Origin: Pristiophorus japonicus
Lineage: Eukaryota
Direction of reading: 5' to 3'
DNA: 64,000 nucleotides
NCBI RefSeq assembly: GCF_044704955.1
Contig: NC_091980.1
Location: 41,602,001-41,666,000, forward strand
Under the pieces are notes generated by a model. That model was not told the origin of the DNA and ran no database searches. It worked only from the letters and a program-made list of their open reading frames with translations. Both the position numbers and the translations under genes were made by a program. Positions 39,825 to 63,590 of the stretch are shown here, piece by piece; positions within the stretch are counted from its first letter, which is position 1, and the number at the start of each line of letters is the position of its first letter.

Positions 39825-39970
39825 NNNNNNNNNNNNNNNNNNNNNNNNNNNNNNNNNNNNNNNNNNNNNNNNNNNNNNNNNNNNNNNNNNNNNNNNNNNN
39901 NNNNNNNNNNNNNNNNNNNNNNNNNNNNNNNNNNNNNNNNNNNNNNNNNNNNNNNNNNNNNNNNNNNNNN
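39825..39970. other. Assembly gap
   Basis: Run of N. Confidence 1.
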
Positions 39971-62543: not shown

Positions 62544-62602
62544 CTAAAAAAAAGATTAAATGTTACCAGGTGTAACTGATTTGCAAGAATCAATGCATAC
62601 AT

Positions 62603-62839
62603 TTTTTTTTTAATTCGTAGCCAATCGTTCCAATTCTTTGTCAAATCACAAACGCCAGAGGTCACCTTGCACACGCCAAGGATCACTCTGCGCCAATGCT
62701 CTTAGCCAAAAGGCCTAGAGCCACTGCACCGTTCCTGGAAGTACTGCAATACCAGGTTCGTGCCATGGAGGTGGATGGGTCAGGTCCCCCACACACCTCC
62801 GTGGAGGTGGATGGGTCAAGCCACCCCACCCACCTCCTG
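62603..62839 (-). mobile_element. Poly(A)-tailed retroposon built from rearranged U2 snRNA segments
   Basis: 13-bp TSD TCAATGCATACAT (62590-62602 and 62840-62852); A10 tail; contains acctggtattgcagtacttccaggaacggtgca and ggccttttggctaaga. Confidence 0.85.
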
Positions 62840-63590
62840 TCAATGCATACATGTTATAGTGAGTTAGGTACTAAAGCTGTCAAATTAAGGCGATTGGCAA
62901 AAGAACCAAAACTGGCAAAAGAACCAAACTTTAAAAAAAACTTTACGCAGCGAATGATCGGAAATGCAGTGCCCGAAAGGGTGGCGGAGGCAGATTCGAT
63001 TACTGCTTTCTAAGGAGTTAGATAAGTACATGGCGAAACATTTGCAGGGCTACGGGGAAAGGATTAGCCGAAGTTCTCTTGCAGAGCTGGATCAGAGGGA
63101 GGCTTTAAATTGAATATCTTAATGACCTCGCATCCAACGCGAAATCCGTTTGGTACAGTTGACAACTCCTGTACCATCACTGCGACAATAAATATCATCC
63201 TGTGCCCCGCTCCAGAAATCTACAAAGTCACAGCATAGAAAAATGGCAATTGGAACAGGAAATACGTCGGCCAGGCAGCATTGGCCTGAAACGTTAACTT
63301 TCTCTGCCCACAGATGCTGCCGAATCTGCTGAGTATTTCAAGCAGTCTCCCTTCCATTTCAGATTGCCAGCAACCGCAGTATTTTGCATTGGATAGAAAA
63401 ATGGCAAACATAAAACTCGGTGACACGCGATATATCGCAAGCGATCCGCGACAGCAACTTTAAAAACACGGGCAATATATTTGCTAAAGTCATTTAAAAA
63501 ACCAGCACCTTGTAAACAAGGCGACTTTGGAAGATTGATTCTTCTAATATGTCGTTTGAAACATGAGGCTACACTGAAATCGGACCTTAC

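Follow-up and report, generated by a model that had tools for sequence, protein, structure and literature searches.

The insert in an intron of a TGF-beta-family gene is a 5′-truncated copy of a SINE family derived from the U2 and U1 snRNA genes, which inserts at the U2 site used by Keno elements and is likely to be transcribed from the U2 promoter. This reading is drawn from comparison of genomic sequences. The window is the whole stretch of 64,000 nucleotides in which the insert lies. The family very probably belongs to the SINEU type. Its members have a U1/U2 head, are short and non-coding, end in poly(A) and are flanked by target-site duplications (TSDs); they were amplified from masters with recurrent 5′ addition and share their target with a Tx1 element.

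The insert and its host intron

The insert is 237 bp long (62603–62839, minus strand) and corresponds to nt 119–355 of a 355-nt element. Comparison with other genomic copies placed it in the young A subfamily, with one difference from the full-length copy L026. Its TSD is a perfect 13-bp repeat, located at 62840–62852 on the 5′ side and 62590–62602 on the 3′ side (minus strand). The poly(A) tail (62603–62611, minus strand) consists of A9 plus one A common to the TSD. Both the duplication and the A tail had been described in an earlier note on this DNA. The host intron spans 62544–63590 (minus strand), the SINE is in sense orientation to the host gene, and its end is 59 nt from the intron acceptor. 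The intron placement made in the earlier note holds, and a TGF-beta domain was found in the gene. We take the gene to be GDF9, as it was named there. The intron copy is probably a neutral, recent insertion. The same intron contains a perfect 16-nt direct repeat with 18-nt spacing (62895–62928), and positions 39825–39970 of the window are a run of 146 N.

On the minus strand, the insert begins with hairpin 1 (62803–62837), whose origin from U2 stem-loop III was recognised by folding and U2 comparison. Hairpin 2 (62767–62800) is its tandem duplicate, and certain family members have one hairpin. These are followed by U2 stem-loop IV (62726–62762), an internal U2 head comprising stem-loop I (U2 7–29; 62697–62719), which is the remnant of an older head that reached U2 nt 38, a family-specific tail hairpin (62655–62692), which is a larger version of the hairpin in the older D relatives, and a 3′ tail (62612–62654) unlike the Keno 3′ UTR. 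The predicted folding energy was −98.9 kcal/mol (z −4.4), and none of 200 shuffles was equally stable. The fold comprised the two tandem hairpins, stem-loop IV and stem-loop I, as originally claimed, together with the tail hairpin.

The likeness of these blocks to U2 was borne out against the U2 genes of the same genome. Stem-loop IV was identical to U2 153–186 at 32 of 34 nt, the stem-loop I block to U2 7–29 at 21 of 23 nt, and the first hairpin region to U2 100–146 at 36 of 47 aligned nt. For hairpin 1 alone, an equal or higher score against U2 was obtained in 1 of 2000 shuffles. The Rfam U2 search proposed in the earlier note gave a weak match for the window copy alone (17.8 bits, E 1.2; cut-off 46 bits) and a score above the cut-off for a full-length copy (60.4 bits). 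Rfam matches to Prion_pknot, PVT1_4 and pRNA were under their cut-offs and were discarded.

Composition of the full-length element

The full element is 355 nt long, and the window copy covers its 3′ two-thirds. Many copies reach 118 nt further 5′ than the window copy and start at the first U2 base; one of them, L026, spans all 355 nt and has a TSD of 14 bp. Mapped onto the U2 and U1 genes of the same genome, the element runs through U2 1–29, U1 3–57, U2 100–147, the stem-loop III duplicate, U2 153–186, U2 7–29, an 85-nt tail and poly(A). The head matches U2 1–29 exactly and U2 1–35 with two changes. The U1 piece scored 60, against a maximum of 36 in 2000 shuffles.

The branch-point pairing region is altered in subfamilies A and B. 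In the A subfamily the base before the U tract is C, not A, and B has a canonical Sm site. The absence of an Sm site reported in the earlier note is true of the truncated window copy and does not extend to the family. No LINE-derived part was found in the element. The tail gave scores against the Keno 3′ end that were equalled or exceeded in 68 and 139 of 200 shuffles, and the whole element against Keno was matched by at best 9 of 200 shuffles. A U2 processed pseudogene would be an independent, colinear copy of U2 only; the element is composite, high in copy number and divided into subfamilies, in agreement with the initial view that it is a retroposon family.

Family size, subfamilies and 5′ ends

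An internal 22-mer had 4,201 exact matches in the same genome, which is a lower bound on family size, and the insert is not a single-copy chimera. In a search of this 5.92-Gb genome, 40 of 1,509 candidates were scored and all 40 were near-identical to the window copy.

The 5′ ends were read in a set of 100 matches, the first in order along the genome, all of which lie on contig C1. Sixty copies started at nt 1–26 (59 of them at nt 1–16), and 40 were truncated. Among the truncated copies, 28 ended at nt 114–128, the class to which the window copy belongs. The heads of the 60 were A-type in 36, B-type (U2 1–28) in 14, U2 1–38 in 9 (9 of the 100 copies) and other in 1. It had been suggested that the long copies be followed upstream; they led into the snRNA head, beginning at U2 nucleotide 1, and no LINE body (Tx1/L1 ORF2) and no common upstream extension was present in the 100 copies. 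TSDs of at least 7 nt were detected automatically in 47 of them.

The B head had 391 exact matches, and 11 of the 30 loci read were of full B type. A neighbouring copy lay within 700 bp in 23 of the 100 copies against 0.08 expected, indicating that tandem insertion is common. In mixed tandem pairs, subfamily B was upstream in nine and downstream in none. The upstream copy was read as the newer one because neighbours of different subfamilies often have an identical 5′ start, and B is accordingly read as the youngest subfamily. The subfamilies and the fixed junctions common to the copies indicate that the family arose by amplification from masters and not as a collection of chimeras formed one by one. 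The 5′ addition of U1 and U2 pieces was recurrent: heads of U2 1–28, 1–29 and 1–38 were found, an older head is internal, and the forms occur as a series in tandem trains. A 3′-truncated copy with only the first ~60 nt of the SINE lies within an LTR element (L102:1504–1565).

Older D relatives

An older family, D, had 561 matches and consists of U2 1–190, then U2 7–38 or a shortened form of it, then a simpler version of the same tail. Thirty D loci were read; 23 were near full length, 6 were truncated and 1 was interrupted at nt 38. All six truncated copies ended at U2 103–134. Many D copies are without the stem-loop II region. In the tandem trains L015, L163 and L254, D and later forms are adjacent with the oldest downstream, from which we infer that modules were stacked at the 5′ end. 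Since the oldest relatives run through U2 7–38 and the trains show this order, the trailing stem-loop I is best read as a former U2 head that ends at the Keno site in the oldest relatives. At L390:1737–1787 (minus strand), about 50 nt of the U3 snoRNA 5′ end (Rfam E 6.6e-06, 33.4 bits, just below the cut-off of 34 bits) immediately precede a full copy of D type; this piece probably arose by a template jump.

The partner LINE

The main U2 array holds an intact LINE with an ORF1 of 581 aa and an ORF2 of 1147 aa that contains AP endonuclease and reverse transcriptase (RT) domains. It is inserted at U2 38/39, with its poly(A) joined to U2 nt 38, and its best match among solved structures was L1 ORF2. 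In the available sections of PMC4640811, Keno and Utopia insert at the same U2 site and Keno has the AP enzyme; the array LINE has this enzyme and RT at this site, as Keno does. The 3′ junction of the SINE in U2 is that of the array LINE, a shared target that points to mobilisation by a Tx1-type element. An L1/Tx1-type enzyme had been named as the mover from the outset, and the common junction supports it.

In a dispersed Keno copy (L361), U2 sequence from downstream and a further A-tail are present, which shows that elements in U2 genes can be transcribed through and copied out. Dispersed Keno relatives gave 2,134 matches to a 16-mer, part of them in a satellite. The 30 relatives read were 79–94% identical to the array LINE, and none of the 30 was at the U2 site. 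A tandem array with a 2.33-kb period and a Keno 3′-UTR word in each unit was found at G000:C1:476182559–476267292. At L055:5900–6004 (minus strand), the Keno 5′ end opens with a head like U2 1–38, followed by a copied target-like motif and a word resembling the octamer, and Keno copies there insert in tandem into Keno's own U2-like head. At L355:1150–1200, Keno is inserted in a SINE-B head at a U1-derived motif similar to the U2 site.

SINE copies in the U2 genes

The main U2 array has units of ~765 bp, and 239 intact U2 heads were counted in five stretches. Seventeen subfamily-B copies start at U2 +1 right behind the upstream flank of this array and are 89% identical to L026. In these copies U2 29–37 is replaced and the poly(A) is joined to nt 38. 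They may be few insertions multiplied by recombination. An eighteenth B copy (L332) stands behind the unrelated flank of the second U2 cluster, on contig C9. In the array copies the poly(A) tract is 20–110 nt long, and U2 is broken at the site that the LINE uses.

Exact junctions of poly(A) with U2 nt 38 numbered 59 genome-wide, 32 of Keno type and 27 of the SINE lineage; the latter were B in 20, D-type in 6 and older A-type in 1. Over 302 nt, L332 and L355 each had the same sequence as 4 of the 11 dispersed full B copies, an identity that is silent on the direction of copying. In this assembly, the A subfamily of the window was behind a U2 flank in none of the 17 pattern matches and none of the 59 junctions, and L331, the sole A-type copy at the U2 site, is not preceded by a U2 flank. 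The U2 arrays may be collapsed in the assembly, or the masters may have been lost. No dispersed SINE had downstream U2 sequence (0 of 59).

The flank of the main array had no octamer and matched the U1 promoter element in register at only 6 and 7 of 22 positions. The C9 flank matched it at 11 and 10 of 22, a weak score for a region picked after inspection. A promoter role is ascribed to the main-array flank because 239 intact U2 heads occur in its homogenised units.

Dispersed insertion sites

A single site in the pol gene of an LTR element accounted for 110 junctions. The 30 read were SINE family in 24, D-type in 2, a Keno-like 3′ end in 1 and short inserts in 3. One site in a DDE_Tnp_4 transposase gene held 5 of the 100 copies. 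The Keno-like site preference was weak: of 82 dispersed sites, 11 open in a manner similar to the U2 site, and one recurrent transposase site accounts for five of these. Since most such sites are unlike the U2 site, the enzyme acting there is assigned from the Keno relatives.

Structural constraint and the truncation hotspot

Recurrent variants among 220 copies, scored at non-CpG positions of nt 158–303, affected 5 of 81 paired sites against 14 of 58 unpaired ones (p 0.003); these counts stem from few masters and are not independent. The 13-nt loop of stem-loop IV had no recurrent variant (p 0.016 against other unpaired positions). In U2, this loop is the binding loop of U2B″/U2A′. The possible snRNP mimicry raised in the earlier note is indirectly favoured by these patterns.

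The truncation hotspot (nt 114–128) is located just 3′ of the Sm-like U tract. The D copies stop in the same zone though they are without the U1 piece, so the truncation barrier follows the junction of the Sm site and stem-loop III. A bound Sm ring is the cause we prefer, with confidence a little short of even; the alternatives are a linker sensitive to nuclease and pausing at the U run. A block by the Sm ring predicts more truncation in B, which has the canonical site, but only 1 of 7 B-tailed copies (a small sample) was truncated there, which does not support the prediction.

Proposed mechanism and alternatives

A retrocopy of an snRNA leaves its promoter behind, since the promoters of snRNA genes precede the transcribed RNA. 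Insertion directed by Keno would supply master copies with an external U2 promoter. The putative cycle starts from the arrays, where the LINE with AP endonuclease and RT occupies U2 nt 38/39 and the SINE has the same 3′ junction. In the array copies, the U2 head of the SINE seamlessly takes the place of the 5′ end of the target gene and starts at +1 behind the flank, a replacement that homology between cDNA and target would yield. RNA polymerase II would then start at +1, read through the encoded A-tract into U2 38–191 and terminate at the 3′ box of U2. Priming in the A-tract by Keno, or by relatives of it that are dispersed, would place copies back into U2 genes and elsewhere. Truncated inserts could acquire a fresh U2 head from the gene they enter, other pieces could come from snRNAs by template jumps, and modules would thus stack at the 5′ end. 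Array turnover would swap the masters and produce successive subfamilies.

A more complete model is a parasitic snRNA gene. The SINE would be a minority unit of the U2 array, driven by the U2 promoter and protected by an Sm ring and U2A′/U2B″, whose binding would leave the truncation footprint; Keno would copy it, and array turnover would drive waves of subfamilies. We hold this model tentatively, with the balance leaning somewhat against all of it being right. The U2-resident copies might instead be a sink, with the true masters scattered through the genome and transcribed from neighbouring promoters of other kinds, for example within an LTR retrotransposon or host gene. Masters of this kind are proposed for crocodile SINEU-2B in the available sections of PMC4494074, where comparable 5′ extensions are described. 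The lack of a window-subfamily master in the assembled U2 loci and the many SINE-family junctions at the pol site would fit them too. However, read-through from foreign promoters should leave common 5′ extensions, which the 100 copies did not show. The 5′ ends cluster at U2 nt 1–16, the youngest subfamily is the one behind U2 flanks, and heads that end at U2 nt 38 require insertion in a U2 gene. We consider dispersed masters unlikely.

A variant snRNA gene of use to the host, residing in the U2 array and giving rise to the dispersed copies as retro-pseudogenes, is a very unlikely source. The conserved paired positions and stem-loop IV loop and the homogenised array copies are as such a gene would have them, whereas the long poly(A) tracts that break U2 at the LINE site, the altered branch-point pairing region of A and B, the stem-loop II region missing in many D copies and the rapid replacement among subfamilies are not. 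An internal RNA polymerase III promoter, as in ordinary SINEs, is less probable still. It would account for the sharp 5′ start and the thousands of copies, but stretches of T, four to six long (nt 15–18, 108–113 and 247–250), would terminate polymerase III, and no Rfam match to tRNA, 5S or 7SL was found in six loci; the head and internal promoter of a classical polymerase III SINE are thus lacking. Almost no weight is left for a permuted array of U2 modules or the 3′ UTR of a Tx1/L1 LINE, both raised in the earlier note. Taken by itself, the window copy, which is 5′-truncated, shows the order III, III, IV, I; the full element follows U2 colinearly, starting at nucleotide 1 of U2, and its trailing stem-loop I is the older head. 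Of the two identities then offered, SINE is upheld; a LINE 3′ UTR does not agree with full copies that end at U2 +1 with no ORF upstream, or with a tail unlike the Keno 3′ end.

Comparison with known elements

SINEU and Keno, the comparisons suggested at the start, proved to be the right ones. In the available sections of PMC4494074, SINEU-1, -2 and -3 are reported from crocodilians only and are mobilised by a Keno-related Tx1-Mar; their transcription is called an open question, and internal T runs are said to argue against polymerase III. As far as that description goes, the shark family shares with them the U1/U2 heads, pieces added repeatedly at the 5′ end, partly duplicated segments, poly(A), a length below 500 bp and internal T runs, as well as tandem copies around the target duplication, a preference for transposon targets and a Keno-related Tx1 partner. 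SINEU targets Mariner-N4 and, in those sections, is not reported inside U2 genes, whereas the shark family is found at U2 +1 in arrays. The shark family is also very young; the comparison was by published description.

Keno and Utopia, as described in the part of PMC4640811 available, use the same U2 insertion site, and the AP endonuclease that marks Keno is present in the array LINE. They are autonomous, whereas the shark SINE encodes nothing and, assembled from snRNA pieces, travels as a passenger. The Drosophila R2 SIDEs, in the available part of PMC3414825, are the closest working analogy. They are likewise non-autonomous, sit at a LINE site in a tandem RNA-gene array, rely on co-transcription and gained snRNA pieces by template jumps. 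In contrast, R2 SIDEs are deleted LINEs with a ribozyme and reside in rDNA; the shark SINE, in which no LINE-derived part was found, spreads genome-wide and, starting at +1, would have no need of 5′ cleavage. U2 processed pseudogenes and snRNA-LINE chimeras also have U2 sequence, poly(A) and a target duplication, but they arise singly according to the available text of PMC4494074, whereas the SINE has thousands of copies with the same fixed junctions and diagnostic variants.

In the open literature, including the available parts of PMC5381603, PMC5499810 and PMC4758252, no shark snRNA-headed SINE and no Keno-site SINE was found; subscription journals, Repbase and Dfam were outside the scope of this search. 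The new family is of SINEU type and very young, the genomic evidence points to promoter capture in U2 genes, and within the literature searched the family extends snRNA-headed SINEs beyond crocodilians. The genome offers candidate masters behind U2 flanks, an intact same-site partner LINE and an ordered series of subfamilies, and the question of SINEU transcription is thus directly testable in the shark. The family suggests a general path by which a site-specific LINE may give rise to a polymerase II SINE. If true, the trick of the parasitic snRNA gene would explain the heads and the transcription of crocodilian SINEUs.

Further observations on the U2 arrays

Two classes of U2 genes, 96% identical, have unrelated flanks (L035 versus L057/L332). 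Class 1 forms the array of 765-bp units with more than 200 copies and has no recognisable promoter element in its flank; class 2 forms the cluster on C9 with a period of 18–21 kb, and a promoter element is present in its flank. At the array edge G000:C19:69625000–69725000 (L137–L145, L055), 17 upstream flanks were followed by Keno in 11 cases, the SINE in 5 and an intact U2 in 1. This nearly full invasion differs from the array stretch on C4309, which is more than 95% intact. An orphan piece of the U2 array with Keno fragments lies on another chromosome (L353; G000:C14:76771749–76774780). In this piece, behind the array flank, a Keno head is interrupted by an older, truncated SINE copy.
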